Assembly: GCA_037481835.1 (NCBI GenBank)
Contig: JBBFKW010000015.1
Location: 1 to 64,000 of the forward strand
Direction: 5' to 3'
Length of the DNA stretch: 64,000 nt
Source: Desulfosoma sp.
GTDB taxonomy: Bacteria; Desulfobacterota; Syntrophobacteria; Syntrophobacterales; DSM-9756
The notes beneath the pieces were generated by a model that was given only the letters and a program-made list of their open reading frames with translations, had not been told where the DNA came from and did not search any database. Of this stretch, positions 28,254-45,983 are shown piece after piece. A program made the translations under genes and the position numbers. Numbering within the stretch: position 1 is the first letter of the stretch; every line of letters starts with the position of its first letter.

Positions 28254-29330
28254 ATGGAAACATGGCTTGTGACCGGGGGAGCCGGCTTTATCGGCAGCAA
28301 CTTCGTCCACTTGGTTCGCCGTCTGAAGCGGGCCCGGGTCATCAATCTGGACAAATTGACCTATGCCGGCCACCTGGAATCTTTGGAACCCTTGAAGGAC
28401 GACCCCGATCATCTTTTCGTCCGAGGGGATATCGGCAATGTGGAACTGGTTTTTTACCTCCTGAACACTTACGGGGTGACCACGGTGGTGAATTTTGCCG
28501 CCGAATCCCACGTGGACCGATCCATCGACGGGCCAGGGGACTTCGTCCAGACCAACATCGTGGGGACCTTTCGGCTCCTGGATGCGGCCCGCCATTACTG
28601 GAACGGACTGGACGGGGACGCCAAGGCCCGATTTCGGTTCCTGCACATTTCCACCGATGAAGTCTACGGATCCTTGGGCCCCGAAGGCTTTTTCACGGAA
28701 TCCACCCCCTACGCCCCAAATTCTCCTTATTCCGCCTCCAAGGCGGCGTCGGATCACCTGGTGCGGGCCTATCACGAAACCTACGGGCTGCCCACGCTGA
28801 CCACAAACTGCTCCAACAACTACGGGCCTTACCAGTATCCGGAAAAGCTCATTCCCTTGATGATTCTCAACGCCTTGGAAGGAAAACCCCTGCCCATCTA
28901 CGGAGACGGGCTCAATGTCCGGGATTGGCTCTACGTGGTGGACCATTGTGAAGCCATCCTGCGCGTGTTGGAGTCGGGCCGTGTGGGCGAAACCTACAAC
29001 ATCGGGGGGCATAACGAAAAAACCAACGTGGAAGTCGTTCGCACCCTGTGCCGCGTGCTCGAGGACTTGGCGCCGTCACGGGACAACCCGGCCATGCAGA
29101 CCACAGGGGCGCGATACGAGGACCTCATCACTTTCGTGCCGGACCGTCCCGGCCACGATCGGCGTTACGCCATCGACGCATCCAAGATCGCTCGGGAGTT
29201 GGGATGGCGCCCTCGAGAGACCTTCGATTCCGGGCTGCGCAAGACCGTCTCGTGGTATCTGGAAAACAGGGAATGGTGCCGCAAGGTGACCGAAGGGGTC
29301 TATGATCGAACCCGCTTGGGGAGAGCCTGA
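28254..29330 (+). CDS. rfbB: dTDP-glucose 4,6-dehydratase
   Basis: [53 protein letters not shown]. Confidence 0.95.
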
Positions 29331-29501
29331 TTTGAACGCCGGGGGTTCCTTGCGGTGCGGGCGTTCCCGCTGGGCACGGAGAAGTCGTCCCCATGTCGGG
29401 TGACGGCCTCCGGACGACATGCCGGAAAAACCCCGCGCCTCGGATCTTTTCGGACAAGCCCCTCGGCGCAGCCCGGGGGCGTTGAGTGATGGAGTCAGAC
29501 C

Positions 29502-30602
29502 ATGAACGCAATGAAGCCTGAACACATGAAGGCGTTGGTTTTGAGCGGCGGGTCGGGGACACGGCTTCGCCCCTTGACGTACACCGGCGCCAAGCAGTTG
29601 GTCCCGGTGGCCAACAAGCCCATCCTCTTTTACGTTTTGGAAAACATCGCCGCGGCGGGTATCCGGGATGTGGGCCTTGTGATCGCTCCCGAAACCGGCC
29701 AGGAAGTCATGGAGGCCGTTGGAAACGGCAGCCGCTGGGGCCTCAATGCCGAATACATCCTCCAGGAACGCCCCCTGGGTTTGGCGCACGCCGTGCTCAC
29801 GGCCAAGGACTACCTCAAGGCCTCCCCGTTTCTCATGTACCTCGGTGACAACCTCATCGGCTGCCGGGTACGCGCCGAAGTGGAAAGCTTCCTTCATGAT
29901 CCGTCGCTTTCCGCGGCGATTTTCCTAAAGACCGTTCCCAATCCCAGGGCCTTTGGCGTCGCGGTGGTCAACGGCGATGGGCAGGTGGTGGACCTGGTGG
30001 AAAAGCCGGCCGATCCCCCGTCCAACCTGGCTTTGGTCGGCATTTACCTCTTTCGGACGGAAATTTTTGAAGCCATCGGCAATATCCGCCCATCGGCCCG
30101 CGGGGAACTGGAAATTACCGACGCCATCTCCTGGCTCATCAAGAGCGGCCGTCGCGTCCACAGCCACATCATCCACACCTGGTGGCTGGACACCGGCAAG
30201 AAGGACGACCTCCTGCTGGCCAATGATACCGTCATGGACGATTGGCTGAAGACGCACATCGCGGGCACGGTGGATGCGCACAGCCAAGTGACGGGGCGCG
30301 TCCATATCGAAGACGGCGCCCAGTTGATCCGGTCCGTGGTGCGGGGCCCTGTGATCATCGGGGCTGGAGCCACCTTGGTGGAAGCGACCATCGGGCCCTT
30401 TACGGCCATCGGCCCGGGGGTGCTCATCGAGCGGTCCACCGTGGACCATTCGGTCATCATGGAAGGGTGCCACATTCGCGATATCGCACGGCTGGAAAAC
30501 TCGGTTTTGGGACGCCGCGTCAAGGTCTGCCCCACGTCCACACCGCACGGTGCCATCAGCCTCATGGTGGGCGACGACTGCGTTATTGAAGTGAGGCGGT
30601 GA
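29502..30602 (+). CDS. rfbA: Glucose-1-phosphate thymidylyltransferase, long form
   Basis: LSGGSGTRLRPLT..KQL, GLAHA, YLGDN, EKP, RGELEITD, WLDTG plus a C-terminal hexapeptide-repeat region. Confidence 0.9.
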   Translation: MNAMKPEHMKALVLSGGSGTRLRPLTYTGAKQLVPVANKPILFYVLENIAAAGIRDVGLVIAPETGQEVMEAVGNGSRWGLNAEYILQERPLGLAHAVLTAKDYLKASPFLMYLGDNLIGCRVRAEVESFLHDPSLSAAIFLKTVPNPRAFGVAVVNGDGQVVDLVEKPADPPSNLALVGIYLFRTEIFEAIGNIRPSARGELEITDAISWLIKSGRRVHSHIIHTWWLDTGKKDDLLLANDTVMDDWLKTHIAGTVDAHSQVTGRVHIEDGAQLIRSVVRGPVIIGAGATLVEATIGPFTAIGPGVLIERSTVDHSVIMEGCHIRDIARLENSVLGRRVKVCPTSTPHGAISLMVGDDCVIEVRR

Positions 30603-30729
30603 AATTTCTCCGGCGGATATTCATTGACGAGGAGGCCGCGGCTTTGCTAGAAAAACGGCAAATACGCCCGGAGCCGAACGGCACGGAGCCACGGAAGGTT
30701 GGGAAGCCCGGTTCAGGAAGGAGGCCGTC

Positions 30730-30933
30730 ATGTGGGGGATGGATTTTCTGTGTGCGACGCTGAAACGCAGTTTGGCGAGTATGCTTCCGTGGGACATCCC
30801 ATGGTATGATCCCAGCCACGCGGTGTTTTTCGCTGCTCTTTACGGCGCCTTGAGCGTCATCGGCCTCGGGGTGCTCATCGCCGTGCTCATGACCTTGAAA
30901 CAGCTCAAAAAAGGAAACGGCGCGCCCCACTAA
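30730..30933 (+). CDS. Small single-pass membrane protein
   Basis: Strong RBS AAGGAGG; one long hydrophobic helix preceded by PWDIPWYDPSHAVFF. Confidence 0.65.
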   Translation: MWGMDFLCATLKRSLASMLPWDIPWYDPSHAVFFAALYGALSVIGLGVLIAVLMTLKQLKKGNGAPH

Positions 30934-31134
30934 AATTTCGGCCTGTTCGGGCGCCACCGCTCTATTCCTTTAAATTCCCGGGACCCTTTTTCGACGGCGT
31001 CAGCACCTTCGAAAAGGGCTCTCCTGCATTGCCCCAAAAGGCGGTCCCAGACCGCCTTTTTCATCCCCGACGGTGTGTGCGGCACTTCCCCCAAGTCATG
31101 TTCCAACTCAGGATCCCCAAAAGGAGGGTACGGC

Positions 31135-32493
31135 ATGGACCCGAAAGCCTTTCGCGAATATGACATTCGCGGCCTGGTGGATAAGGAAATCCACGACGAC
31201 GATGTGATCCGGCTGGGTAAAGCCTTCGCCACGTACCTCGCTCCCTACGGCAGGCGCCGAGTGGTCGTGGGGCGCGATTGCCGTTTGAGTTCCGACCGGT
31301 ACCGTGATCTTCTCGTGCAGGGCATGCTGTCCGCGGGACTTGACGTGGTGGATGTGGGCGTTGTGCCGACACCGCTCTTTTATTTCGCCATTCGCCATCT
31401 GGACCGGGAAGGCGGCATCATGATCACGGCGAGCCACAATCCGCCGGAATACAACGGTTTCAAGGTGTGCAACGGCTACGACACCATTTCGGGCCCGGAG
31501 ATTCAAAAGCTGAAAGAAGTCATGGACGCGGGAGATTTCGTCCGAGGGGACGGGACGGTGAGCGATTACGACATCGTGACCCCTTACTGGGATTTTGTGT
31601 GCGGCAACATCGTGCTGGATCGGCCCTTGCGCGTCGGGGTGGATGCCGGCAACGCCGTGGGAGGTCCTGTGGCGGTGCCTCTGTTGGAAAGGCTCGGCTG
31701 CCATGTCTACCCCTTGTACTGCGATATGGACGGGACCTTTCCCAATCACGAACCGGACCCCACGGTCATGGAAAATCTCAAGGACCTTATCGAGCTTGTG
31801 CGGCGGGAATCCTTGGATGTGGGCATCGCCTACGACGGCGACTGCGACCGGCTGGGGGTGGTGGATCACTACGGGAACGTGGTCTACGGCGACAAACTCA
31901 TGATCATTTTCGCCCGGGAAATCCTCAGCCGAAAGCCCGGGGCCGTGTTCATCTCCGAGGTCAAGTGTTCCAAGACGCTCTACGACGACATCCGAAAGCG
32001 CGGCGGAACGGCCATCATGTGGCGCACGGGTCATTCCCTGATCAAGGCCAAGATGAAGGAAACCGGGGCCGATCTGGCGGGGGAGATGAGCGGCCACATG
32101 TTCTTCAAAGACCGCTACTTCGGATTTGACGACGGAATCTACGCCTCGTGCCGGCTCCTGGAAATCCTGGCTCGAACCCGCAAGAGAATTCCCGAACTCT
32201 TGGAAGGGGTGCCGGAGACGGTGACCACGCCCGAGATCCGGGTGGCGTGCCCCGACGAAATCAAGTTCGCGGTGGTGGAACGGGCCGTGGCCTATTTCAA
32301 GAAGGAAGGCTACGACGTGATCGATGTGGACGGGGCGCGCATAGTGTTCCCGGACGGCTGGGGGCTGGTGCGGGCTTCCAATACCCAGCCGGTCTTGGTC
32401 CTTCGCTACGAGGCGGAAACCGAGGCGCGGCTCAAGGAAATCCAAAACCTCATCGAAGAAACCATCGAAAAGATTCGATCGGGGGCCTTGTAA
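31135..32493 (+). CDS. Phosphomannomutase/phosphoglucomutase
   Basis: FREYDIRG, ITASHNP (phospho-Ser), DGDCDR, GEMSGH, RASNTQP; ATG after AAGGAGG. Confidence 0.95.
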   Translation: MDPKAFREYDIRGLVDKEIHDDDVIRLGKAFATYLAPYGRRRVVVGRDCRLSSDRYRDLLVQGMLSAGLDVVDVGVVPTPLFYFAIRHLDREGGIMITASHNPPEYNGFKVCNGYDTISGPEIQKLKEVMDAGDFVRGDGTVSDYDIVTPYWDFVCGNIVLDRPLRVGVDAGNAVGGPVAVPLLERLGCHVYPLYCDMDGTFPNHEPDPTVMENLKDLIELVRRESLDVGIAYDGDCDRLGVVDHYGNVVYGDKLMIIFAREILSRKPGAVFISEVKCSKTLYDDIRKRGGTAIMWRTGHSLIKAKMKETGADLAGEMSGHMFFKDRYFGFDDGIYASCRLLEILARTRKRIPELLEGVPETVTTPEIRVACPDEIKFAVVERAVAYFKKEGYDVIDVDGARIVFPDGWGLVRASNTQPVLVLRYEAETEARLKEIQNLIEETIEKIRSGAL

Positions 32494-32504
32494 GCCCCCC
32501 GGAG

Positions 32505-33818
32505 CTAGGCTTTGACGATCTTTTCACGCCCTTCCGTGACGTGCTTCGTGGCATTTCGGGTGTCGATCACCAAGGGGGCGTGGCGCACAATCCAGGGATA
32601 GTCGTAGGCGCTGTGGTCCGTCAGGATGACCACGGCCTCCACGGACGAGAGGGTCTCTTCCGTCAGCGGCACCGATTCCTGGTCGAAGCGATGCTTGCGG
32701 CCGGGTTTCAGTTTGGGGATATGAGGGTCGTTGTACAGCACGACGGCCCCCCGGTCCTGCAAAAGCTGCATCACTTCGTAGGATGGGGACTCGCGGTCGT
32801 CGTCGATGTCCTTCTTGTAGGCCACCCCCAGAATGAGGATGCGCGAGCCTTTGAGGCATCGGCACCGGTCGTTGAGGGCCTCCGTGATGCGCTCCAGCAC
32901 GTAGTAGGGCATGGAGACGTTAACTTCCCCGGCCAGCTGGATGAAGCGGGTGGCGAAGTCGTATTCCCGGGCTTTCCACGACAGGTAAAAGGGGTCGATG
33001 GGAATGCAGTGACCGCCCAGGCCGGGCCCGGGGTAAAACGGGGTGAACCCGAAGGGCTTGGTGGCCGCCGCTTCAATGACTTCCCAAATGTCGATCCCCA
33101 TGCGGAAGGCCAGGACTTTGAGCTCGTTGACCAGGGCGATGTTGACGCTGCGGTAGATGTTTTCCAGGAGCTTGGTCAGTTCTGCGACACGGGTGCTGGA
33201 AACGGGCACGACCCGCGTGACGGCGTGGCCGTAAAGGGCCTTGGCGCATTCCAGGCAGGCCGCAGTGACCCCGCCCACCACCTTGGGAATGTTTCCCGTA
33301 TGGAAGCTCGGGTTGCCGGGATCTTCCCGCTCCGGGGAAAAGGCCAGGAAGAAATCCCGGCCCACGCGGAGCCCCGTGCGCTCCAGCTTGGGCAGCATGA
33401 GTTCTTCGGTCGTTCCGGGATAGGTGGTGCTTTCCAAAACCACGAGATGCCCCGGGCGCAGGTGCTGCGCGATGGTTTCCGTGGTGCTTTCAATATAGCG
33501 AAGATCGGGTTCCATCTTGTCCGTGAGGGGCGTCGGCACGCAAATGACGATGCAGTCCGCTTCACGAAGTCGTTCGAAGCTGATCGTGACATCCAACTGC
33601 CCGGCTTCGAGAAACTTTCGGACGGGCTCGATGGGAATATGACGGATGTAGCTCTTGCCGTGGAGCAATGCGTTGATCTTGGCGCTGTCCACATCGAAGC
33701 CGATGAGAGGAAATCCGGCTTCGCCGAAACGGATCAGGAGGGGGAGCCCCACGTAGCCCAGACCGATGATTCCCACGACAGCTTTTCGCTCTTGGATCTT
33801 TTGAAGCAGTGCTTCCAT
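32505..33818 (-). CDS. UDP-N-acetylhexosamine 6-dehydrogenase (nucleotide sugar dehydrogenase, WbpA/WecC-like)
   Basis: IGLGYVGLP, ICVPTP, ESTTYPGTT, SPEREDPG, GLGGHCIPIDP, GVAYKKDIDD.RESP. Confidence 0.92.
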   Translation of the reverse strand: MEALLQKIQERKAVVGIIGLGYVGLPLLIRFGEAGFPLIGFDVDSAKINALLHGKSYIRHIPIEPVRKFLEAGQLDVTISFERLREADCIVICVPTPLTDKMEPDLRYIESTTETIAQHLRPGHLVVLESTTYPGTTEELMLPKLERTGLRVGRDFFLAFSPEREDPGNPSFHTGNIPKVVGGVTAACLECAKALYGHAVTRVVPVSSTRVAELTKLLENIYRSVNIALVNELKVLAFRMGIDIWEVIEAAATKPFGFTPFYPGPGLGGHCIPIDPFYLSWKAREYDFATRFIQLAGEVNVSMPYYVLERITEALNDRCRCLKGSRILILGVAYKKDIDDDRESPSYEVMQLLQDRGAVVLYNDPHIPKLKPGRKHRFDQESVPLTEETLSSVEAVVILTDHSAYDYPWIVRHAPLVIDTRNATKHVTEGREKIVKA

Positions 33819-33907
33819 AGGTGAGCAGCCTCCGTTGTGTGTTGATTTTTCGAACGAGGAAAAGGTGACATTGGGACGCATTGTGCCCAAGGAGAAGGCA
33901 AAGAGCA

Positions 33908-34894
33908 ATGGAGAAAAACGCACGCGGTTCTTTTCGGTGTCTTGTGACGGGAGCGGCGGGTTTCGTCGGAAGCCACCTGTGTGAAAAGCTTTTGGCCCTA
34001 GGGCATACCGTGGTGGGCGTCGATAATTTCTTTTCCGGACGTCGCGAGAATCTCGACTCCTTCTCGGCCCATCCCCGGTTTTTTTTCCACGAAAGATCCA
34101 TCGTGGAACCGGACCTGCTCGAGGAGCTCCATGCGGCCCACGGCCCCTTGGACACCGTGTTCCATTTGGCGGCCATCGTCAGTGTGCCCTATTCCTTGGA
34201 TCATCCTGAAGAAACCTACGACGTGAATTACCGAGCCACGGTCCGTCTGTTGGACGAAGCCGAAAGGCTTCGGGTGCGTTCTTTTGTGTTCGCGGGTTCC
34301 GCGGCCGAATACGGGACTCAGGATCGAATGCCGCTTCGTGAGACCGATGCCGGGGACGGCACCCGATGGCTCAGCCCCTACGGAGAAGCCAAGTACCGAG
34401 CCACCATGGCCGTGGCCTCCCGCCGAAGCCCCCTGCGAGGGGTGTCCCTTCGATGTTTTAATATCTACGGGCCCCGCCAGGACCCTTCCAGCCCTTACAG
34501 CGGCGTCATTTCCCGTTTTGTGGACATGGCCGTGGCCGGCAGGCCTTTGACCGTCTTCGGAGACGGACTGCAGACCCGGGATTTTGTGTTCGTGGATGAC
34601 GTGGTGGCTGCCTACTGTCAGGCGGCGGGAGCTGCGGATGGAGCCGGAAGCGGTCCCTGCGGGATCTATAACGTGGGTTCGGGCCGACCTACGGCTGTCC
34701 TGGATCTTGCCCGTTTGATTTGCCGCTTGACAGAGCGTCCGGAATCCATCACGTTTTGTCCAGAACGACCCGGGGACATCCGACACAGCACGGCAAGCAT
34801 CCAATCCGCCTTGCGAGAATTGGGCTGGGCGCCCCGGATCGGCCTGGAAGAAGGCCTGAGACGAACCATTCAGTGGATGCGGGGTGCCGCGTAA
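33908..34894 (+). CDS. NAD-dependent epimerase/dehydratase (UDP-glucose 4-epimerase-like SDR)
   Basis: VTGAAGFVG, HLAA, SAAEYG, SPYGEAK (YxxxK), RCFNIYGPRQDP, GDGLQTRDF. Confidence 0.9.
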   Translation: MEKNARGSFRCLVTGAAGFVGSHLCEKLLALGHTVVGVDNFFSGRRENLDSFSAHPRFFFHERSIVEPDLLEELHAAHGPLDTVFHLAAIVSVPYSLDHPEETYDVNYRATVRLLDEAERLRVRSFVFAGSAAEYGTQDRMPLRETDAGDGTRWLSPYGEAKYRATMAVASRRSPLRGVSLRCFNIYGPRQDPSSPYSGVISRFVDMAVAGRPLTVFGDGLQTRDFVFVDDVVAAYCQAAGAADGAGSGPCGIYNVGSGRPTAVLDLARLICRLTERPESITFCPERPGDIRHSTASIQSALRELGWAPRIGLEEGLRRTIQWMRGAA

Positions 34895-34957
34895 CTCTTG
34901 GAGGTCAGAGCCTCTCCCAATGTCAACGGAAGTCAGAAAAAAACGAAGGAGGGAGCT

Positions 34958-35773
34958 GTGAAGAAGGCGATCTTTTTGGGTGTGGCGTGTCTTGCGGTGG
35001 CGGTTTTGGTGATGACCTGCAAGCCGTCCGGAGACGGCGGCAAGCTGCCGGTGAGTCGGGCCCTCGAACCGTATCGTGCTGTGGACTTCAGCCATCTCCT
35101 GGGCATGGAAGGCTTCAGCGACGCCCTTCTCAGGATGCATTTCACCCTGTACCAAGGCTATGTGGCCAATACCAACGCCCTCTTGGAGAAGACCCGGGCC
35201 TTGGCCAAGGAAGGCAAGGCCGACGGTCCGGAATACGCCGAACTGAAAAGGCGGTTGGGCTTCGAATTCAACGGCATGAAGCTTCACGAGTACTACTTCG
35301 GCAACTTGGGTGGATCCGGCGTCCTGCCCAAGAACAACGCCCTCTATGCGGCCATTGAGGAAAACTTCGGCAGCTTCGAAAACTGGAAGGCGGATTTCAT
35401 CGCCACAGGAAGGATGCGCGGCATCGGCTGGGTTGTTCTGTACCAGGATCCGGCCACGGGCCGTCTTGTGAACACGTGGATCAACGAACACGAAACCGGC
35501 CATTTCGTCGGCTGTGTGCCGCTTTTGGTCATGGATGTCTTCGAACACGCCTACGTAACGGACTACGGTTTGGACCGAAAGGCCTATATCGAGGCCTTTT
35601 TCAAGAACTTGAACTGGAAAGTGGTGCTCCAAAGGTTCGGTCTTGAAGTGAACGAAGCCGATTTTCCGAAGCCACCGACGCAAGCCGGCGCCGCCAAGGC
35701 AGAGGAGGCCGGCCCGGCCAAGGCTGAAAAGACCTCCGCGGAACCGGCGCCGCCCAAGGAACAGAAATCGTGA
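34958..35773 (+). CDS. Fe/Mn superoxide dismutase family protein with N-terminal export signal
   Basis: Metal ligands MHF, LHEYYF, DVFEHAY; MKK plus hydrophobic signal ending in Cys; Ala/Pro/Lys/Glu-rich tail; GTG start after GGAGGGAG. Confidence 0.88.
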   Translation: MKKAIFLGVACLAVAVLVMTCKPSGDGGKLPVSRALEPYRAVDFSHLLGMEGFSDALLRMHFTLYQGYVANTNALLEKTRALAKEGKADGPEYAELKRRLGFEFNGMKLHEYYFGNLGGSGVLPKNNALYAAIEENFGSFENWKADFIATGRMRGIGWVVLYQDPATGRLVNTWINEHETGHFVGCVPLLVMDVFEHAYVTDYGLDRKAYIEAFFKNLNWKVVLQRFGLEVNEADFPKPPTQAGAAKAEEAGPAKAEKTSAEPAPPKEQKS

Positions 35774-35817: not shown

Positions 35818-35934
35818 ATAACGGTAATCCTTACCCCGGGTAGAAATCCTTGCCTCATCGGCGACCCGCTCGGCTTCAAGAAGTCGGCCGAAGCGGGATT
35901 CTTTTTCCCCATAGCGAGGATCCCGGCTGGAGAG

Positions 35935-38541
35935 ATGGTCATGGAAAGCATCGTGGAATCCCTGAAGAAGCAAAGGGAGCAGGTTCTGCACAGTTCGGAC
36001 GAGGAGACGCTGCGGCGGCATATGAGCCTACTGGAGATCGCCGTCATCAGCCTCCACAACCGATTGGTCAATCGCATGGCGTCGGAATCGGAACGGTTCC
36101 GATCCAGCGGCGCCATTGTGGCCATGGGGAATTTGGGCCGCGGTGTGTTGGGCCCCCAAGATCCTGTGACTTTGTTATGGCTCCGTACGGAAACCTTTCC
36201 CTGGGACGAAACGGCCCAGCAGGAAATCACCGCCCCGCTGGTGGAAGCCGGGTGGCGGGTGAGCCTGCGCTGCGCGACCATTCCCGAGCTCCTTGAAGAG
36301 GCGGAATCGCACCTGGCGTTTTTTTTCGAACTCCTGGACGCGCGGTACCTTTCCGGCAACCGCCAGTTGATCGGGGAGCTGGATCATGCCCTGGATGATT
36401 TCATCGCTGAGCATCAGCAGGTCCTTTTCGATGAGCTCTACGTGGGGATTCGAGGTCGCCATGCACGGTTTTCCAAGGCCGAAGACTGGCTGGAGCCCGA
36501 TGTGCTGGAGAGCCCCGGAGCCCTCAGGGACATTGACTCCATTCGTTACGCCGCACGCATCCTATTGGATGTGCGCTGCTTCGACGACGCCATCTTTCAG
36601 GGTTACCTCACGCGAAAGGAAGTGGACCGGCTGCAAGGCGCCGAAAAGAAGCTTCTCAAGTGGCTGAACCTGCTTCGAACCGTCAAGGGGGACCGGCAGA
36701 GCGTGCTGGATTTTCAGGTTCAGGAAATCCTAGCGGAAAAATTGGGCTACAGCGGACGGTCCGGGTTCCTTCCCGTGGAATCGTTCATGCAAGAAGTCCA
36801 TGAGACCCTCCATGAAGTGTTCTGCGTCAGTTCGGAGTTTTGCGAGCGACTCCAGGAGACGGGAAAGATCGCAAGCGCCCCGGCGCCTCCCGCCGAGCGC
36901 GTCCATGTGGAAGAAGGGATGAGCCTCCTCGGCGGGAGGCTCCACGTGGATCCGGCGCGTTATGAACCGTCGGCGGCCAACGTGATCCGTCTCTACAGCC
37001 TGGCCGCCCGCCACAAGGCTGGTTTTTCCAGCGCCACGCGCCGGTGGCTGCACCATCACCGCAGCGTGGTGGAAACCGCCGCCGCCGATCCCGGCGTCCA
37101 GGAAGCCTTCCTGGACCTGGTGGCCTCCGATGACGGCCACCTGTCCGTCGTCCGAAGGTTTTACAACGACGGGTTTCTACGGGCTCTTGTTCCGGAAACG
37201 GCCTTGGTCCACGCCCTGGTGCAGCATGACGCGTTCCATGTCTATCCCGTCCATGAACACCACCTGAGGACTCTTCGGGAAATTAAGCGATTGCAGGCGG
37301 GCGAGTATCGCGACGAGGAGCCGGAGCTGACGGTCTTGGCGCAGGAGACGGCCGAGAACCGGTGGCTCCTGCTGGCGGCCTTGTTCCACGACATCGGCAA
37401 GCACGTGGGAAGCCGTCACGCCAAGCACGGAGCCGACATGTTCCCGCTCATCGCACGGCGCCTCGGCTTGAGCCCCGAGGGCACCGAGCTGGTGACCTTC
37501 CTCATTCGCCATCATCTGCTCCTGATGGACACCGCCTCCATGAGGGACCTGGGGGACATGGAACTCCTCGTGCAGTGTGCCCGGACCGTGGGGGATCCGG
37601 AAAAACTGCACCTGCTCATGATCTTGAGCTTTGCCGACATGATGGCCACGGGCCCCCGTGCCGCGCAAAAGTGGCGGGAAACCCCGGTCCGGGAGCTGTA
37701 CCAGCGGTTGGCCGATCTTCTGGAGAAGGGAGAGCCCGGTGAGGAGATCCTGGCGGAACGTGTACAACGCCTGAAAGAGGCGGTCTTCGAAAGGGTGGCC
37801 GACCTGGTGGATCGATCCCGCCTGGAAGAGCATTTCCGCGACATGCCGCCGCGCTACGTGCTGACCAGTTCGCCGGAAGCCGTTGCCCGGCATTTGAGGT
37901 TGGAAATGGAGCTCGGCCCTGAACCGGACGCCTTCGTCTGGGAAGTGCAGAAGGAAAACGGCGGCGTGGAAATCACGGTGCTCAGTCGGGAAATGCCCGG
38001 GTTCTTGGCCAAGTCGGCCGGGATCCTCACCCTGCACGATTTGGATATCCGGGATGCCAGGATCTTTACCAAGAAAAACGGGGTGATGATCCTCGTCTTT
38101 CGGTGCGGTTTCGTTTCGTCGTCGTCGGTGGAACCCGATTGGGCCTTGGTGCGGGCCGACTTGCGCCGACTCCTGGAAGGCCGGCTGGCCCTGGATTATC
38201 GGATCGCGTTTCACGCCGCTACCAGAGGGGCGGGGCGAACTCACCCCTTGATTCCCAGCCCCAGCCGTGTTCTGGTGGATAACGAGTCGGCGAGGGAATA
38301 CACGATTGTGGAAGTGTACACCATGGACCGCCCCGGGCTCTTGTACACCATCACGCGCACGCTGCTGGATCTCCAGGTGCGCATCTACGTGGCCAAAATC
38401 ACCACCAAGGTGGATCAGGTGGCCGACATCTTCTACATCAAAAATCACCGGGGGGAAAAGGTGACCGACCGGGAACAGGTGGAGGAACTCCGTCGGGCCC
38501 TGCTCTTTTATCTGGACGGGCCGCCCCGGGCGGCGACTTGA
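35935..38541 (+). CDS. glnD: GlnD-like protein (degenerate nucleotidyltransferase domain, HD domain, two ACT domains)
   Basis: 868 aa; PGALRD, HDAFHVYPVHEH, LFHDIGK, ADMMATGP, DRPGLL, AKITTKVDQVADIFY; N-terminal DxD motif absent. Confidence 0.85.
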   Translation: MVMESIVESLKKQREQVLHSSDEETLRRHMSLLEIAVISLHNRLVNRMASESERFRSSGAIVAMGNLGRGVLGPQDPVTLLWLRTETFPWDETAQQEITAPLVEAGWRVSLRCATIPELLEEAESHLAFFFELLDARYLSGNRQLIGELDHALDDFIAEHQQVLFDELYVGIRGRHARFSKAEDWLEPDVLESPGALRDIDSIRYAARILLDVRCFDDAIFQGYLTRKEVDRLQGAEKKLLKWLNLLRTVKGDRQSVLDFQVQEILAEKLGYSGRSGFLPVESFMQEVHETLHEVFCVSSEFCERLQETGKIASAPAPPAERVHVEEGMSLLGGRLHVDPARYEPSAANVIRLYSLAARHKAGFSSATRRWLHHHRSVVETAAADPGVQEAFLDLVASDDGHLSVVRRFYNDGFLRALVPETALVHALVQHDAFHVYPVHEHHLRTLREIKRLQAGEYRDEEPELTVLAQETAENRWLLLAALFHDIGKHVGSRHAKHGADMFPLIARRLGLSPEGTELVTFLIRHHLLLMDTASMRDLGDMELLVQCARTVGDPEKLHLLMILSFADMMATGPRAAQKWRETPVRELYQRLADLLEKGEPGEEILAERVQRLKEAVFERVADLVDRSRLEEHFRDMPPRYVLTSSPEAVARHLRLEMELGPEPDAFVWEVQKENGGVEITVLSREMPGFLAKSAGILTLHDLDIRDARIFTKKNGVMILVFRCGFVSSSSVEPDWALVRADLRRLLEGRLALDYRIAFHAATRGAGRTHPLIPSPSRVLVDNESAREYTIVEVYTMDRPGLLYTITRTLLDLQVRIYVAKITTKVDQVADIFYIKNHRGEKVTDREQVEELRRALLFYLDGPPRAAT

Positions 38542-38561
38542 ACGGCCGAGGAGAAAGCCCC

Positions 38562-39584
38562 ATGTCTCTCTATATCCGCCGCACCCGCGAAGGGCGCCAA
38601 ACGCATTACGTGCTGAGGGAGTCCTATTGGAACGGGTCGTGTTTTGCCGCGCGAAACATCCTGGATTTGGGCACCGATCCGGCGGAGCACATCGTCTATG
38701 CAGGCGGCAACGGATTCTACTTCAGCGATGCGGTGGAAGAGGCTTTCTCCCGAATGGGACTCGAAAGGGAAACCGAAGATCTGGAACAGGCTTTCCTCAA
38801 TTACCTGGATCCGCACATCCGCCGCATCATCGAAAATTTCACCACGGGAAGATCCCCGGCCCATCCCTCATGGAATTCCGAGCAACTGGCCCATCGGCAG
38901 CGGTTTCTCCATCCGTTCGACAAGCGCCGCATGCATTTCCTCCGGTGCGGTCGGATCGACATCGGCTCCTTGGACGGCCGCAGCTGGAAGTTCTTGAACG
39001 TTCTGTGCGACAAATGCCGGGATGAAATCGAGCATGTCATCGAGGGGTTGGAAAAGGATCTCAGGCCCCAGGAACGGCGCAATTATCTCTTCACGGCCCT
39101 GGAACTCCAGAGGTACTTCCCCAGCCACCTTCTCAAGAACAATCCGGCCGCGTTGGATCCCCAAAAGGTGGATGCGTATTTCCTGGAAGAAATCTGCAGG
39201 CTGAACGAGGATCCAACGTTTTTCGTGGGCGTCGAAGACCACAGTCCCAAGAGGCTCCATCCCTATCTCGTGAAATACGTCATCATGTATTTCGATCACA
39301 CCTTCACGCCCCAGTCTCTGTGGGAACGGATCTTCGAGGACTTCGTGAGGCAGCGGCAGTTTCGTTTTCAGCCGGCGGCGCGCCCAGGCCTTTCGGAAGA
39401 GGAGGCGTGCGCCTGCTTAGGGTTGCATCCCAAAGAATACCGGGCCATGAGCGCCCAGGCTCTGGCCCGGCATTATCGAAGGCGGGCGAAAAAACATCAT
39501 CCCGACGCGGGCGGAGACCACGAAACCTTCATTCGTTTGTCCCAGGCCTACGAGTGCCTCGCTCGGAAAAAAACGCGGGCCTGA
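38562..39584 (+). CDS. Protein with C-terminal DnaJ (J) domain
   Basis: C-terminal ACACLGL..YRRRAKKHHPDAGGDHETFIRLSQAY with HPD motif; unrecognised N-terminal region. Confidence 0.85.
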   Translation: MSLYIRRTREGRQTHYVLRESYWNGSCFAARNILDLGTDPAEHIVYAGGNGFYFSDAVEEAFSRMGLERETEDLEQAFLNYLDPHIRRIIENFTTGRSPAHPSWNSEQLAHRQRFLHPFDKRRMHFLRCGRIDIGSLDGRSWKFLNVLCDKCRDEIEHVIEGLEKDLRPQERRNYLFTALELQRYFPSHLLKNNPAALDPQKVDAYFLEEICRLNEDPTFFVGVEDHSPKRLHPYLVKYVIMYFDHTFTPQSLWERIFEDFVRQRQFRFQPAARPGLSEEEACACLGLHPKEYRAMSAQALARHYRRRAKKHHPDAGGDHETFIRLSQAYECLARKKTRA

Positions 39585-39621: not shown

Positions 39622-40578
39622 TCATCGCAGTTCGCACTGCAGGAGGTCCTGGACCACGCTGTAGGGGTCCGTTTCCCGGGCGGTGACTTTGCGCACCAGG
39701 TCGTCCAGGCTCACCCCCCGGCTTTCCATGCGCCGAAGGAGTTCCGCAAGCGCTTCTTCCCGCAGGGTTTCCAGGAGTTGCGTCTTGGCTCGCTTCTGGG
39801 TGACCGCTTCCCACTGACTCCGGTCGTTTTCCAAAAGGTATTGGCGATGGCGTTCCACGGCGTCCATGAGTTCCGGGATGCCGCGTCCTTTCAGCGCCTC
39901 GGTTTCGATGATCGGCGGCTCCCAGTGCTGGTCCCCGAGGCGGCGCAGTCCCAATTCGATGAGGTTTCTCAATTCGCGCACCGTCTTGCGGGATCCTTCC
40001 CGGTCGGCCTTGTTGACCACGAAGATATTGCCGATTTCCATGATCCCGGCCTTGATGGCCTGGACTTCGTCGCCCATGCCCGGAATGGTCACGAGCACGG
40101 TGGTGTGGGCGCAATTGGCGATGTCCACCTCGTCCTGCCCCACGCCCACGGTTTCCACCATGATGATGTCCTTGCCCATGGCATCCAGGACGGTGATCAT
40201 GTCGTTGGTGGACTTGGTGAGCCCCCCGAAGTGGCCGCGGGTGGCCAAGGAGCGGATAAAGACGCCGCCGTCCAGGAAATGGCGCTGCATGCGGATGCGG
40301 TCGCCGAGAATGGCGCCTCCGGTAAAGGGGCTTGTGGGGTCGATGGCCAGGATGCCCACGGTCAGGCCCTTCTTGCGGTATTCCATGGCCATCTGGTCCA
40401 CGAGGGTGCTCTTGCCGACCCCGGGGGATCCCGTAAATCCCAATATGTACGCCCTGCCCGTATGAGGGTAGAGTTCCTTGAGGATTTCCCGGGCGGACGG
40501 CATCTGGTCGTCGATGTCGCGCAGGAGACGCGCGACGGCCCGCACGTCCCCCGCGAGGATTTGGTCCACGATGCTCAT
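39622..40578 (-). CDS. meaB: B12-mutase metallochaperone GTPase MeaB/ArgK
   Basis: GSPGVGKST, AIDPTSPFTGGAILGDRIRM, ETVGVGQ, KAGIME, VNKAD. Confidence 0.95.
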   Translation of the reverse strand: MSIVDQILAGDVRAVARLLRDIDDQMPSAREILKELYPHTGRAYILGFTGSPGVGKSTLVDQMAMEYRKKGLTVGILAIDPTSPFTGGAILGDRIRMQRHFLDGGVFIRSLATRGHFGGLTKSTNDMITVLDAMGKDIIMVETVGVGQDEVDIANCAHTTVLVTIPGMGDEVQAIKAGIMEIGNIFVVNKADREGSRKTVRELRNLIELGLRRLGDQHWEPPIIETEALKGRGIPELMDAVERHRQYLLENDRSQWEAVTQKRAKTQLLETLREEALAELLRRMESRGVSLDDLVRKVTARETDPYSVVQDLLQCELR

Positions 40579-40593
40579 GGTCCGTGTCTCTTC

Positions 40594-41013
40594 CTAGGCG
40601 ACCATCGCCTTGCGTGGTTTCACATGGGTGCGGACCCACTGGACGATGTCGTCCAGTTTGGCTCCGGGCTCAAAGATTTCCTTGATGCCGATGGCCTTGA
40701 GTTTGGGGATGTCTTCCAAAGGGAAAATGCCGCCGCCGATGACGGTGATGTCTTCGGCGTTGTTTTCCTTCAAAAGTTCCATGATCCTTGGGAAAGAATA
40801 GCGGTGGGCCCCGGAAAGAATGCTCAGGCCGATCAGGTCCACATCCTCCTGAATGGCCGTGCTCACGATCTGTTCAGGCGTCTGATGGCATCCGGTGTAG
40901 ACCACTTCAAAACCTGCATCCCGGAAAGCCCGAGCGATGACGCGGGCCCCTCGGTCGTGTCCGTCCAATCCCGGCTTGGCGATCAATATGCGCAGTTTCC
41001 TTTCTTCAGCCAT
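40594..41013 (-). CDS. Acyl-CoA mutase cobalamin-binding small subunit (IcmB-like)
   Basis: [11 protein letters not shown] (DxHxxG), [13 protein letters not shown]. Confidence 0.93.
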
Positions 41014-41137
41014 GGAAACCATCCCTCCTGTGTCGTCGTCGTTGACCGTTGATTCTGCATTCGAAGCCGCCCGGGGCAGGCCTCCGGCGCAAAGGCGGAA
41101 CACCGCCGCCCGGCCCCGGCCTCATGGATGCCCAAAG

Positions 41138-42838
41138 CTAGAACGTTCCCGGGTCGGAATAGGTGCCGAAGACCTCGCGATAGAGATCGCAGCATTCCTG
41201 TTCCGTGGCGCCGGCCCGCACCGCGTCGATGAGCGCCGGCATGACGTTGTTTTCCCAACACGGAGGCCCTTCGCAGCGTCGGCGCAGTTCGTCCATGGCC
41301 TTCTGGAGCTTCACCTTGTCGCGCTTTTCCTTGAACTGTCGGGTGCGCTCGATCTGGAAATTTTCCAGCTCGTCGTCGATGCGCAGGACGAACTCCAAAT
41401 CGGGTCGAGCGCTGGGGAACTTGTTCACCCCGATGATGATCTTTTCGCCTTTTTCCACCTGCTGTTGGAAATGATAGGCGGCGTCGGCGATTTCCATCTG
41501 GGGATAGTCCTTTTCGATGGCGGCCACCATCCCTCCCAGCTCATCCAGCTTTCGGATGTAGACCATGGCCTCTTCTTCCATCTTGTCGGTGAGGGCTTCC
41601 ACGAAATAGGAGCCGGCCAGAGGGTCGATCACGTTGGCCACCCCGGTCTCATCGGCCAGGATCTGCTGGGTGCGAAGGGCGATGCGCACGGCTTCCTCGC
41701 TGGGGATCATGTACACTTCATCCAGCGAGTTGGTGTGCAGCGACTGGGTGCCTCCCAGGATGGCCGCCAGGGCTTCCGTGGTGGTCCGGATGATGTTGTT
41801 GTAAGGCTCTTGGGCCGTAAGAGAGCACCCCGCCGTCTGGGTGTGGAAACGGCACATCATGGAACGCGGTTTCTGGGCCTTGAACCGATCTTTCATGAGG
41901 CGGGCCCATAGCCTTCGAGCGGCGCGCATCTTGGCGATTTCTTCGAAGAAATCGATATGGGAGTTCCAGAAGAAGGAAAGGCGCCCGGCGAAGTCGTCCA
42001 CCTTGAGGCCCCGCTTGATGCATTCTTCCACGTAGGTGATGCCGTCGTAGATGGTAAAGGCCAGTTCCTGCACCGCCGTGGCCCCGGCTTCCCGGATGTG
42101 GTAGCCGCTGATGCTGATGGTGTTCCAGCGGGGCACTTCGTACGTGCCGAATTCCACGGTGTCCACGACGAGCCGCAGGCTGGGTTCCGGGGGAAGCATG
42201 AGGGTTTTTTGGGCGATGAATTCCTTGAGGCAGTCGTTTTGGATGGTGCCGCCCAATTTCTTGCGATCGAAGCCTTGGTTTTCCGCGTTCGCGATATACA
42301 TGGCCCAGATGACCGAGGCGGGCGGGTTGATGGTCATGGAGGTGGTCACTTCTTCCAGGTTGATCCCGGCGAAGAGCCGCTGCATGTCGTCAATGGTGTC
42401 GATGGCCACACCGCATTTGCCGCATTCACCGCGGGCCACCGGGGCGTCTGTGTCATAGCCCATGAGCGTCGGGAAATCGAAGGCGGTGCTCAGTCCCGTT
42501 TCCCCGTGTTCGATGAGGTAATGAAAGCGCTTGTTGGTGTCTTCGGCGGTTCCCAGGCCCGCGAACATGCGCATGGTCCACAGTCTCGCCCGGTACATGG
42601 TGGGCTGGACGCCGCGGGTGAAGGGATATTGGCCGGGAAAGCCCAAATCCTGGGAATAATCCTTGTCCTTGATGTCCAGAGGCGTGTAAAGGGCTTTCAC
42701 TTCCATGTCCGAGACGGTGGAAAACCGCTCCAGCCGTTCCGGCATTTTCTGCAAGGCCTTCCCATATTCCTGCAACCAGTCCTGGTACTCCTTTTCCATC
42801 CGATCCAGTTCCGCTTCTGAAAACATCTTTCGGCCCAT
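41138..42838 (-). CDS. Acyl-CoA mutase large (substrate-binding) subunit, isobutyryl-CoA mutase-like
   Basis: YPFTRG, WTMRMFAG, GLSTAFD, TIQNDCLKEFIAQK, SISGYHIREAG, HTQT, SLHTN; Phe/Gln at specificity positions. Confidence 0.9.
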   Translation of the reverse strand: MGRKMFSEAELDRMEKEYQDWLQEYGKALQKMPERLERFSTVSDMEVKALYTPLDIKDKDYSQDLGFPGQYPFTRGVQPTMYRARLWTMRMFAGLGTAEDTNKRFHYLIEHGETGLSTAFDFPTLMGYDTDAPVARGECGKCGVAIDTIDDMQRLFAGINLEEVTTSMTINPPASVIWAMYIANAENQGFDRKKLGGTIQNDCLKEFIAQKTLMLPPEPSLRLVVDTVEFGTYEVPRWNTISISGYHIREAGATAVQELAFTIYDGITYVEECIKRGLKVDDFAGRLSFFWNSHIDFFEEIAKMRAARRLWARLMKDRFKAQKPRSMMCRFHTQTAGCSLTAQEPYNNIIRTTTEALAAILGGTQSLHTNSLDEVYMIPSEEAVRIALRTQQILADETGVANVIDPLAGSYFVEALTDKMEEEAMVYIRKLDELGGMVAAIEKDYPQMEIADAAYHFQQQVEKGEKIIIGVNKFPSARPDLEFVLRIDDELENFQIERTRQFKEKRDKVKLQKAMDELRRRCEGPPCWENNVMPALIDAVRAGATEQECCDLYREVFGTYSDPGTF

Positions 42839-43816
42839 AAAGTGTCCCTCCTCCAACGATGAAAACCCTGTGCCCACGGTGCGGATGCGGCGCTTCCCCG
42901 TGCAGCTTCGACCAACGCCACGGGAGCTGCCTCATATCATGAGGGAAATATACGCATAGCGTCTTCGGTCGTCCGCTGCCTTTGCAGGGTCCAAAAGAGC
43001 AGCTTCCGACGGTGCCGTCAAGATTTCTTTCGAAAAGCGATGTCGTCTCGAGGGTGTCCGAGGTGGCATCGCGTGGAATCGAGGGTCTGGACCCGGGGAG
43101 CTTCGCTTGGGGGCCTCTGGCCGTGCCGATTTGATAAGGCCCATGGCAGGGATCGTGTGCGCCCTCTTCGGGCGCTGTGGCCGGAACGGCGTCGCCTGCG
43201 ATCGCCCGAGGCCACGCCCCATCCCCGCGGACCTTAAAAGAGGGGGTTATGCGATGTCAAACAAAATTTTTTTCTCTTGACCATAGCAAAAACCCTGATG
43301 TAGGAAGAAGCCGAACTGGTACCAAGAACTCGAAAAGAGCGCGCTCCTCCTCGGACTCACGCCGTTCTTCGCTGCAGCGTCTCCCCCGCTCCCCGTTCAC
43401 GACCTCCCCGATCATTGGTACCGATTGGGAAATTTTTCCTTTCATCAAAAGCCGTGCCCTCAAGGGATGCTGTCCATGCGAGATCTTGGTTTCGGGCGGT
43501 TCGATCCTGCGCCGATGCAGGATGTCTTAGATCCTTTCGTAACCCGGCGTTCCATTCCGTTCAGACGGTGCGGTTTTCCCATGATGACCTGACGTGGCGA
43601 CATCCAGACTTACAGTTTCCTCAGCCGATGCCACCCCCGGCGCGCCGCAGGGCGAAGCGCCTTGGCGGGGGCGAAGGCGAAGGGGGGTATTGTTGTGCTT
43701 TTGGACGTTCGTGGATTCCTGCCGACGGAAAGGGGGTGGTGGACGAGCTCGGTCAATGGGGTGAGGGGCTTTGTGAGGGCAACGTGTTTTGAGGGTGAGT
43801 GAATAGGGAGGTTACA

Positions 43817-44053
43817 ATGTTTAAGGGGATGCCGAAAATTTTCTGGATCGGTATGTTGCTCCTTTACGGCTGGTTTTTTCTTTTCTTCATCCTAGAAATT
43901 ACCGTTCCCAAATTTCCTCTGATGAAATTCCTCGGGGTTCCTGCATGCTATGTCTACAATTGGATTGTGGGTCTTTGGATCATCAATATGATTGTCGCCG
44001 CTATTTTCTATCTGGCCGAGGAAGCCCGGGAAGCTCGGCTGGCCAAGAAATAA
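43817..44053 (+). CDS. Small two-TM membrane protein (DUF485-like SSS accessory subunit)
   Basis: RBS GGAGG; two hydrophobic helices with FLGVP..Y linker; directly before the SSS symporter. Confidence 0.75.
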   Translation: MFKGMPKIFWIGMLLLYGWFFLFFILEITVPKFPLMKFLGVPACYVYNWIVGLWIINMIVAAIFYLAEEAREARLAKK

Positions 44054-44063
44054 GGAGGAAAGA

Positions 44064-45659
44064 ATGGGTGCGAATCCAGTTGTTATCGCAGGAGCCCTGA
44101 TCTATTTCGCCATCATGATCGCCATCGGCTATTTCACCCGGAAAGCCGCCTTGAACGCGTCCGATTATTACGTGGCCGGCCGCAAGGTGGGCTCGTTCAT
44201 CAACGGGGCGGCGCTGGCTTCCACGTATCTGAGCCCGGCCAGCTTCTTGGGGCTTCCGGCCTTTATCTTTCTTTTGGGCTATCCCTTCTGGTGGGCCCTG
44301 GTGGGGATCATCGGCGGCATGCCCATCGCGACCCTCTTGACGGCCGCTCCCTTGCGCAAATACGCTCCCACTTCTTTTACGGACTACTACGCGGACCGTT
44401 ACGACACCAAGTGGATGCGCCTCATCGCGGGCGTTCCCACCATTATCGCCGGTTTTGCCTACGTGACCCTTTCCATCGTCGGGACGGCGCTCTTCATGCT
44501 CGCCATCTTGAAGCTCAACTACAATATTTCGGTGGTCATCGGGGCTCTGGTGGTTTTCATTTACGTCTTTTACGGCGGGATGGTGGCCACCACCTGGTCG
44601 GCGGCTTTTCAAGGGGTGACCATGGCTGCGGCGGCGGTCATCGGCGCCATTTACACCATCGCTCATTTCGGCGGCCTGAATCCCATGACGGATGCCATTC
44701 TGAGCGTGACCCCGAACTTCTTTAATTGCCCCTACGTCAGCGAAAAACCGTCCAGCGCCCTCATGGGCATGTGGACCGGCATCGTGGGCTTTTACTTTAC
44801 GTGGCATTTCGGTTTTGCGGCCATGCCATACACGGTGGTGCGCTTCTTTACGGCCCAGGACATCAAGTCGGCTCGGCGAAGCGTTTTCTGGGCCATCTTT
44901 TTCGGCGGTTCCATGTACGTGGGGTTGATCATTATCGGTTCGGCCGCCCGGGTGCTCATCGAAACCCTGCACCCCTACATGTCGGTTGAAGGCGTCAAAG
45001 ACGCCATGGGCGTGCTCAAGCACATGAAAGGCGTCTACGGCGTGGGTGGGGCGGCTGTCACGGACTACTCCATGATCGCCGCCATGGAAGGCTTGAAGAG
45101 CCCGTTGCTGTTGGCCGTGATCTGCGCCGGCGGTTTGGCCATCGCCATGTCCACGGCGGCCGGCTGGACCATGGTGCTCAACGTCCTGCTGGGCCGGGAC
45201 CTCATCGGCAAGGTCTTCGGGAGCAAATGGCCTGAGGAAAAGCCGGTCCAGGTGACCCGGATCATGACCGTCATCATCACGGTCATCTGCACTCTGGTGG
45301 CGTTCAGTCCACCCGCGCTGGTTCTGGATATTTCGGGCGCGGCCTTCATCGTGATCCTGTGCTCCGTCGGTCCTCCGCTCATCCTGGGGATCTGGTGGGA
45401 CAAGGCGAACACCACCGCGGCCGTGATCAACATCATTGTCATGACCGTTTTGTCGACCTACTCCTGGATGTACGCCAACAGCAAACTGGGAAGCGCTCAC
45501 TGGTTCTTCCTGAGCCAAAAAGGTGGTATTGTGACACCTCACCAGTTTTACTGGGTGTTCGTCGGGTTCGTATTCTTTGTGTTGGTCAGTTTGGTGACCA
45601 AGCCCAACAGGCCTGAGGTGATCCAGAAGTATTCTTACAATTTGAGACCGGAAAACTAG
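44064..45659 (+). CDS. Sodium:solute symporter (ActP-like monocarboxylate permease)
   Basis: DYYVAGR, NGAALAS.YLSPASFLG, GGMVATTW, P..VVRFFT, many TM helices. Confidence 0.9.
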   Translation: MGANPVVIAGALIYFAIMIAIGYFTRKAALNASDYYVAGRKVGSFINGAALASTYLSPASFLGLPAFIFLLGYPFWWALVGIIGGMPIATLLTAAPLRKYAPTSFTDYYADRYDTKWMRLIAGVPTIIAGFAYVTLSIVGTALFMLAILKLNYNISVVIGALVVFIYVFYGGMVATTWSAAFQGVTMAAAAVIGAIYTIAHFGGLNPMTDAILSVTPNFFNCPYVSEKPSSALMGMWTGIVGFYFTWHFGFAAMPYTVVRFFTAQDIKSARRSVFWAIFFGGSMYVGLIIIGSAARVLIETLHPYMSVEGVKDAMGVLKHMKGVYGVGGAAVTDYSMIAAMEGLKSPLLLAVICAGGLAIAMSTAAGWTMVLNVLLGRDLIGKVFGSKWPEEKPVQVTRIMTVIITVICTLVAFSPPALVLDISGAAFIVILCSVGPPLILGIWWDKANTTAAVINIIVMTVLSTYSWMYANSKLGSAHWFFLSQKGGIVTPHQFYWVFVGFVFFVLVSLVTKPNRPEVIQKYSYNLRPEN

Positions 45660-45975: not shown

Positions 45976-45983
45976 ATTCTCGG

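Follow-up and report, generated by a model that had tools for sequence, protein, structure and literature searches.

Textbook accounts of nitrogen control in bacteria give GlnD as the glutamine sensor. The sections of a review drawn on here (PMC4285133) place its two opposing activities in separate active sites, uridylyl removal in the HD domain and uridylyl transfer in the N-terminal domain, and name PII as the only known GlnD substrate. The present work concerns a second member of the family, GlnD2, encoded in a 64,000-nucleotide stretch of Desulfosoma sp. DNA (the window, meaning the whole stretch that was analysed). Its contig, C15, belongs to a genome of 3.63 Mb that is 99% complete. GlnD2 appears to be an ancient paralogue of the PII uridylyltransferase/uridylyl-removing GlnD in which the nucleotidyltransferase (NT) domain has probably turned into a pseudo-enzyme: the fold stays, and the residues that hold metal and nucleotide are gone. 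In the full-text literature that was searched, which includes few subscription journals, no description of a transferase-dead GlnD paralogue or of a second glnD in this group was found; the only 'GlnD-like' mention that we met, in the part of PMC12795558 drawn on, is of an uncharacterised Campylobacter protein. What is new is a conserved, subfunctionalised form of GlnD with evidence for a role outside PII signalling; the family and its domains were already known.

Domain layout and the lost transferase site

Residues are numbered throughout by the 868-residue open reading frame of the window, which has no interruption. A GGAG lies at 35927-35930. Because its spacing suits the second ATG, at 35941, better, and because the nearest database orthologues are 866 residues long, translation probably starts at that ATG and yields a product of 866 residues. 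When the surroundings of the gene were scanned for promoters and terminators, no promoter-like site emerged, and terminator-like sites were fewer than in shuffled sequence. The parts of the gene are as follows.

35935..38541, + strand: open reading frame of GlnD2, a GlnD-family paralogue (TIGR01693, 465.9 bits)
35935..36096, + strand: N-terminal helices, residues 1-54, with invariant S9, Q13, N42, R43 and N46 (AlphaFold2 helices at 2-19 and 25-47)
36097..36444, + strand: putative pseudo-nucleotidyltransferase core, residues 55-170, fold kept and catalytic residues gone
36115..36183, + strand: degenerate G[GS]...DxD motif, residues 61-83, where G65-N66, P77 and T79 replace GG and D.D
36451..36834, + strand: GlnD_UR_UTase helical domain, residues 173-300 (Pfam PF08335, 87.7 bits), with L191 for the Lys of EPxxK
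37180..37734, + strand: HD phosphohydrolase domain, residues 416-600 (Pfam HD, PF01966, at residues 468-568, 30.5 bits against a cutoff of 22)
37930..38214, + strand: first ACT-like domain, residues 666-760 (Pfam ACT), diverged and aligning to the canonical ACT1
38257..38514, + strand: second ACT domain, residues 775-860 (PF24931, ACT_ACR9_3rd, and PF01842, at residues 779-856)

The Pfam ACT model matches two stretches, of which 790-838 is the best, and the two align to the canonical ACT1 and ACT2. TIGR01693, the equivalog model for GlnD, spans residues 20-857, and its score falls below the curated cutoff of 519.4; across the order the GlnD2 clade scores about 428-475 bits and the canonical paralogue 520-692. 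Orthologues of GlnD2 are named 'uridylyltransferase family protein' or 'HD domain-containing protein' by NCBI and '[protein-PII] uridylyltransferase' by JGI. A missing match to Pfam NTP_transf_2 was dropped as a criterion; the canonical paralogue is without that match too.

The same genome has a complete conventional cascade with a bifunctional-looking GlnD. Canonical glnD lies on contig C6, where the gene order at about 116.7-122.2 kb is nadE, glnB, glnD, glnA; its product has 878 residues, scores 640.8 bits against TIGR01693 (above the cutoff), keeps an intact HD site and is by sequence fully bifunctional. GlnD2 shares 32% identity with it over 804 residues. Three PII proteins, one GlnB and two amtB-linked GlnK, all carry Tyr51, and a GlnE gene is present. 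Across the order glnB adjoins canonical glnD, and the nadE-PII linkage described in the part of PMC7196632 drawn on matches the nadE-glnB cluster here. An earlier reading of the window, made from its letters alone (the sequence-only reading), had argued that GlnD2 implies a separate writer and had proposed a search for PII Tyr51; both the writer, beside glnB and glnA, and the tyrosine, in all three PII proteins, are there.

GlnD2 was aligned (BLASTP and MAFFT) with the canonical GlnD of its own genome, and the canonical reference comprised 130-138 GlnD representatives of all taxa from a library of 1.84 billion proteins. Residues 61-83 read IVAMGNLGRGVLGPQDPVTLLWL in the translation, as the sequence-only reading had given them, and the canonical GlnD of the same genome reads GGFGRGQLSFASDLDLVFL, its two Asp aligning on P77 and T79 of GlnD2. 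Canonical GG has become G65-N66, SDLD has become D76-P77-V78-T79, and LWD has become L102-V103-E104; EPHLK...GSLRD is replaced by E187-P-D-V-L191-E-S-P-G-A-L-R198-D199. Among the canonical representatives the conserved residues are D77 (130/130), D79 and S76 (129/130 each), G or S at 66 (130/130), W103 (125/130), D104 (127/130), K191 (135/137) and R198 (136/138). Because the same positions are near-universal in canonical GlnD, the replacements are, as judged from these alignments, far beyond chance or ordinary drift.

To ask how far the loss extends we compared 39 fetched GlnD2 orthologues (clade B) with 32 canonical copies (clade A). DxD is kept in none of the 39, with Glu at position 77 in two and at 79 in one, and in none of 120 further database orthologues, five of which have a single Glu at either position; canonical clade A copies always have GG.GR...SD.D and LWD. 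Position 191 is Lys in 0/39 genomic and 0/120 database members of clade B, and R198 is lost in most. Clade B keeps E187, P188, G195 and D/E199 of the EPxxK...GGLRD motif, and PF08335 is still recognised in GlnD2. In the NT core, clade B has lost 14 of 22 columns that are invariant in clade A and kept five; G65, G68, R69 and G70 are retained in GlnD2. The sequence-only reading had called the uridylyltransferase site dead and had asked whether the loss is conserved in relatives: the nucleotidyltransferase signatures are replaced clade-wide, and the helical-domain motif is replaced in part. From this loss of residues, seen by sequence comparison, we infer that GlnD2 cannot add uridine monophosphate (UMP).

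Loss of the site has not been accompanied by decay of the domain. With both clades compared over one set of 32 genomes, the mean pairwise identity of the whole protein is 0.517 in clade B against 0.570 in clade A, and that of the NT core 0.43 against 0.54. In the first 54 residues it is clade B that is the better conserved (0.56, against 0.37 in clade A). The ratio of nonsynonymous to synonymous substitution rates (dN/dS; Nei-Gojobori, 11 informative pairs, a twelfth being saturated) lies at 0.05-0.12 for the whole gene in clade B and at 0.06-0.14 for canonical glnD of the same genomes; it is 0.05-0.28 in the NT core of clade B, and about 0.1 in every domain of GlnD2. Because dN/dS is low, as in canonical GlnD, the dead NT domain is to all appearances under purifying selection, and by the same measure pseudogenisation is excluded; relaxed selection over the whole gene, named in the sequence-only reading as a finding that would speak against it, was not seen. 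Residues invariant in clade B include S9, Q13, N42, R43, N46, R56, W107, R137, S140, R143 and W185.

An AlphaFold2 model of residues 1-340, built from a 71-sequence alignment, has a mean predicted local distance difference test score (pLDDT) of 90.1 and a predicted template modelling score (pTM) of 0.86, with strands at 59-64, 78-84, 109-114 and 137-141. The best Foldseek matches in the PDB are the two nucleotidyltransferase domains of GlnE, 1V4A (E 1.5e-7; template modelling score by query, TMq, 0.61) and 3K7D (E 4.6e-6, TMq 0.46-0.54); later matches are DrrA and ANT(4'), with weak ones to NF45/NF90 at ranks 39 and 50. The predicted structure thus retains a GlnE/GlnD-type fold, NT core and helical domain together, without the catalytic residues.

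The HD centre has fared differently. H435, H442, H485-D486, K489, H527 and D568 are all present in GlnD2; H435, H442, D486, K489, H527 and D568 are universal in the canonical representatives (140-141 of 140-141) and occur in 39/39 genomic orthologues. Among the database orthologues H435, H485, K489 and H527 are found in 120/120, H442 and D486 in 119/120 and D568 in 113/120. The sequence-only reading had taken the HD motifs and the ACT motif DRPGLL to be intact. For the catalytic residues and DRPGLL this stands; it does not for D440, which is H in GlnD2 (D in 125/140 canonical) and H or Q throughout the clade, nor for R/K536, which is M in GlnD2 (R or K in 118/141 canonical) and M or L throughout. 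Further changes, Y434F, T438P, H451K and L584P, are fixed in 39/39, and K543E and S569M/L are likewise clade-fixed; 37 of 56 clade-A-invariant columns of the HD domain are retained. The changes at D440 and R/K536 suggest altered HD specificity or a changed substrate. In the first ACT-like domain 13 of 24 canonical-invariant columns are lost in clade B, and the second ACT is the most conserved part of GlnD2, with a mean pairwise identity of 0.67.

Distribution, origin and lineages without PII

Source names of near-identical database proteins put GlnD2 in Desulfosoma, within the order Syntrophobacterales. A six-frame search found a GlnD2 orthologue, at 40-89% identity, in all 41 genomes of the order that were searched (three families, 19 genera, the window genome included), and the canonical paralogue, at about 27-34% identity to GlnD2, in 40 of them, the exception being genome G014. 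One GlnD2 copy (G004) is cut by a contig end. Another, at 101531-104117 of contig C33 in genome G029, is split into two adjacent frames by a frameshift or sequencing error, and on contig C26 of genome G033 a distance of no more than about 8 kb separates GlnD2 from canonical glnD. When 401 genomes were sampled evenly over the phylum, strong matches (E < 1e-200) were confined to the order's three families (13/13, the window genome included). Within the class, one genome of the sister order (G184) carries a copy that shows the clade B HD signatures and whose N-terminus is cut by a contig end; of 11 intermediate matches, in families f35 and f23, four were checked and proved canonical without exception. 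Within the top 150 representatives from the library, degenerate motifs occur only in P0012, P0121, P0122 and P0124 and in the fragments P0123, P0125, P0192 and P0213 (the C-terminal fragment P0206 was not assessable there); the remaining full-length representatives are nearly all canonical, and a few, P0144, P0149 and P0165 among them, show single changes. Syntrophobacter fumaroxidans carries an orthologue, as does Desulfosoma caldarium. Going by source names, the one class in which the clade was found is Syntrophobacteria.

In a FastTree phylogeny of 203 sequences, midpoint-rooted and open to long-branch effects, the 42 tips of clade B form a single group (support 1.0) at the end of a long stem; clade A of this class is likewise monophyletic (support 1.0) and is not its sister. 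Because of this position the tree suggests that clade B is an old duplication or acquisition and not a recent copy made within the lineage.

A survey of the order took in 96 genomes. Every one has a match to the GlnD family; in 83 of them a match exceeds the canonical cutoff, and many of the remainder have fragmented canonical glnD copies. PII occurs in 94. Five genomes (G014, G440, G442, G463 and G465) have a single GlnD-family match, and in two of these, G014 (genus g9; 93% complete, 1% contamination) and G440 (genus g15; 95% complete, 6% contamination), no PII, canonical GlnD, AmtB or GlnE was found in the survey. The sole match in each is clade B, in open frames of 874 and 959 residues, respectively, with all HD ligands. 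The congeners G040 and G444 do have AmtB and GlnE, as does the window genome.

In G440 the absence is, by synteny, a clean deletion of glnB-glnD and not an assembly gap, because one contig (C63) carries nadE and, about 220 bp further on, the orthologue of what is, in the congener G021, the gene after glnD; six genes are collinear. In this genome the glnA of type I glutamine synthetase (GS-I) is a pseudogene cut short: it has an in-frame stop, and similarity ends after about residue 185. In G014 the nadE contig extends 7 kb past nadE and contains neither glnB nor glnD; a search for a GS-I orthologue found none. Because the missing genes sit at four or more separate loci, we consider the 5-7% incompleteness of the assemblies a very unlikely cause of their absence. 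The GlnD2 of G440 is 68% identical to that of G021, and genes on the deletion contig are 64-83% identical to theirs; the matching divergence argues against a contaminant.

Selection on GlnD2 is evident in both genomes. Between G440 and G040 the proteins are 95% identical (dN 0.022, dS 0.143, ratio 0.15); between G014 and G444 dN/dS is 0.11 over 859 codons, with dS saturated. Two lineages have thus probably lost the PII network independently and yet kept GlnD2. That it is retained and constrained without the network argues that its selected role is probably one that needs no PII.

Two further observations concern these genomes. Each keeps a second, more distant glutamine synthetase paralogue (48-50% identity). 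The two belong to different genera, and the pattern has the appearance of convergent loss, with the entire PII network gone in both.

Readings of GlnD2 function

The reading we favour, which in our judgement has an even chance of being right, is that GlnD2 works as an HD hydrolase gated by its ACT domains, carries a pseudo-transferase domain and has a target other than PII. Gating of a hydrolase by the ACT domains is the most likely arrangement because the HD centre and both ligand-sensing ACT domains have been kept. The pseudo-nucleotidyltransferase domain, together with the N-terminal helices, would most likely serve as a binding, recognition or regulatory module, because it is under purifying selection and has invariant residues of its own. 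The substrate is probably another nucleotidylylated protein, or a nucleotide, because GlnD2 persists where the PII/GlnD/GlnE/AmtB/GS-I network was not found. A more specific version is that GlnD2 is the first GlnD-family protein with a non-PII target: an HD hydrolase, sensing amino acids through its ACT domains, that would strip a nucleotidyl group off another protein or break down a nucleotide signal, with the one-time transferase domain recognising the target. This we hold tentatively, and would put it somewhat short of even.

Several observations weigh against a PII-independent role. PII and GlnD2 co-occur in 94 of the 96 genomes, and in most species GlnD2 may still have a PII-related role. 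Both PII-less genomes are metagenome-type assemblies, one of them (G440) with an estimated contamination of 6%, and the sister genome's contig for G014 breaks inside nadE, with the result that synteny does not show a clean deletion there. The loss in G440 is recent (dS 0.14 to G040) and retention of GlnD2 could partly reflect too little time, yet glnA decayed in that time. In several of the pairs used for dN/dS of GlnD2, dS is saturated. Finally, D568 is replaced (by V, N, I, L or T) in 7 of the 120 database orthologues and in the distant members P0122 and P0123, and the HD centre may be inactive in part of the clade.

The sequence-only reading had offered two possibilities, a monofunctional eraser-only GlnD or a new substrate, and the present data weaken the first and favour the second. 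An eraser-only GlnD2 would remove UMP from PII-UMP, its diverged ACT region tuned to a different signal, and would so shift the steady state of PII-UMP. We regard this as unlikely. In its favour, Zhang and colleagues (2010) reportedly observed uridylyl-removing activity in a GlnD without the NT domain. The HD residues are kept, three Tyr51 PII proteins and a canonical writer are at hand in the genome, and PII is present in nearly every genome surveyed (94/96). The separation of the two active sites, as placed in the sections of PMC4285133 drawn on, also fits. What tells against an eraser of PII-UMP is that GlnD2 is intact and constrained in two genomes without detected PII, canonical GlnD, AmtB or GlnE; that the HD site of canonical GlnD is intact, so that no eraser is missing; that in 39 loci no nitrogen-regulation gene (glnB, glnK, amtB or glnA) is linked to GlnD2; and that D440 and R/K536, near-invariant in GlnDs that act on PII, are replaced clade-wide.

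Rather improbable, and less probable than an eraser, is a sensor or scaffold in which both centres are silent, the ACT domains bind a ligand, and the pseudo-nucleotidyltransferase domain and N-terminal helices bind a partner such as canonical GlnD. Clade-specific invariant residues of surface type in the helices and the pseudo-nucleotidyltransferase domain would suit such a role, as would the conservation of ACT2, the most conserved domain, and the members without D568; other nucleotidyltransferase folds have become binding modules, and the fold search returned NF45/NF90, which are not known to be catalytic, as weak matches. The full HD catalytic set, present in 39/39 genomic and at least 113 of 120 database orthologues, would be difficult to account for in a protein that neither catalyses a reaction nor binds metal, and regulation of canonical GlnD is impossible as a role in genomes that lack it.

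A cryptic transferase, in which the NT domain would use other acidic residues, is very improbable. Candidates exist: position 104 is E or D in 38/39 clade B orthologues, acidic residues absent from clade A are conserved at 150 (39/39) and at 154, 189 and 86 (33/39 each), so that E104 and the clade-specific D150, D154 and D189 might be enlisted, and the retained G65, G68, R69 and G70 could be cited in support. Set against them is the joint loss of both strand carboxylates, the second Gly/Ser of G[GS], the preceding Ser and the K191/R198 nucleotide-binding motif. The last reading, that of a decaying gene or annotation artefact, could point to the score below the TIGR01693 cutoff and to the split copy in G029, and is effectively refuted by frames that are open in the window and in the 39 fetched orthologues, by dN/dS of about 0.1 in every domain, and by identity levels in a clade conserved across the order and into its sister order.

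We therefore return to the ACT-gated hydrolase with a non-PII target. That GlnD2 has outlived the whole PII network in two lineages points to such a role; a class-wide GlnD paralogue with no writer, its eraser centre and sensors kept, would represent a GlnD scaffold put to new use. If the target is indeed not PII, then a PII-independent branch of signalling would exist in syntrophic sulfate-reducing bacteria. The orthologue in Syntrophobacter fumaroxidans provides a concrete and cultivable test case. Automatic labels of '[protein-PII] uridylyltransferase' on GlnD2 proteins are very probably wrong as to activity.

Neighbouring genes and known systems

Genes around GlnD2 in the window include the following.

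34898..35773, + strand: Fe/Mn superoxide dismutase with a lipoprotein-like N-terminus (Pfam Sod_Fe_C, Sod_Fe_N), upstream of GlnD2
38538..39584, + strand: open reading frame of 348 residues with a C-terminal J-domain (Pfam DnaJ at residues 299-348, no other Pfam match)
39622-42877, - strand: MeaB GTPase and methylmalonyl-CoA (coenzyme A) mutase, convergent to the GlnD2 unit
49702-51552: gene for a protein with cyclic nucleotide-binding (cNMP), CBS and DUF294 domains

The N-terminal hydrophobic stretch of the superoxide dismutase ends in Cys and its C-terminal tail is rich in Ala, Pro, Lys and Glu. The listed TTG start of the J-domain frame overlaps the stop of GlnD2; its start may instead be an internal ATG a few codons in. 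MeaB and methylmalonyl-CoA mutase fit a propionate-metabolising syntroph. Elsewhere in the window, 25087-34894 holds a sugar-nucleotide and polysaccharide block (a glycosyltransferase, two nucleoside triphosphate transferases, a NUDIX protein, two epimerase/dehydratases and a phosphomannomutase), and 43992-51552 groups a sodium:solute symporter and two family-III CoA-transferases with the cNMP-CBS-DUF294 protein. The latter had been put forward, speculatively, as the writer for GlnD2. This suggestion finds no support: a homologue was found in only two of five GlnD2-bearing genomes, and never near GlnD2, being on another contig or megabases distant.

Neighbours were counted at 39 orthologous loci in three families (f1, 8 loci; f2, 6; f3, 25).

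Superoxide dismutase, upstream on the same strand: f1 7/8, f2 4/6, f3 0/25
J-domain frame, downstream: f1 8/8, f2 0/6, f3 0/25
Enoyl-CoA hydratase, downstream on the same strand: f1 0/8, f2 6/6, f3 11/25
hisH, upstream and divergent: f1 0/8, f2 0/6, f3 13/25
SLT-LysM protein, downstream and convergent: f1 0/8, f2 0/6, f3 10/25

At some loci the divergent neighbour is hisH/hisF.

The nearest described relative is canonical GlnD (TIGR01693; the E. coli and R. rubrum type), which has the same four-part architecture as GlnD2 (NT fold, GlnD_UR_UTase helical domain, HD and two ACT), a similar length and identical HD catalytic residues. Unlike it, GlnD2 has lost the nucleotidyltransferase signatures, falls below the equivalog cutoff, does not lie beside glnB, carries clade-fixed substitutions in HD and ACT, and is kept where no PII was found. 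GlnE (glutamine synthetase adenylyltransferase/adenylyl-removing enzyme; PDB 1V4A and 3K7D), the best structural match of residues 1-340, shares with GlnD2 the NT core, the helical arrangement and PF08335. Both of its NT domains keep the catalytic Asp, removal proceeds by phosphorolysis, and HD and ACT domains are absent.

Two more distant systems offer parallels. The DZF domain of NF45/NF90 is a nucleotidyltransferase fold without catalytic carboxylates that has been reused for interaction, as proposed here for GlnD2; these proteins are eukaryotic and unrelated in sequence and context, and the likeness is one of principle only. RelA/SpoT offers an analogy: a bifunctional write/erase enzyme with an ACT-type C-terminus was duplicated, and one copy has a dead but folded domain, in RelA a conserved pseudo-hydrolase. 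The enzyme family is another one and the substrate a small molecule, and it was the eraser that died in RelA, where in GlnD2 it was the writer. GlnD2 would thus parallel the RelA/SpoT split, here within a system of post-translational modification.

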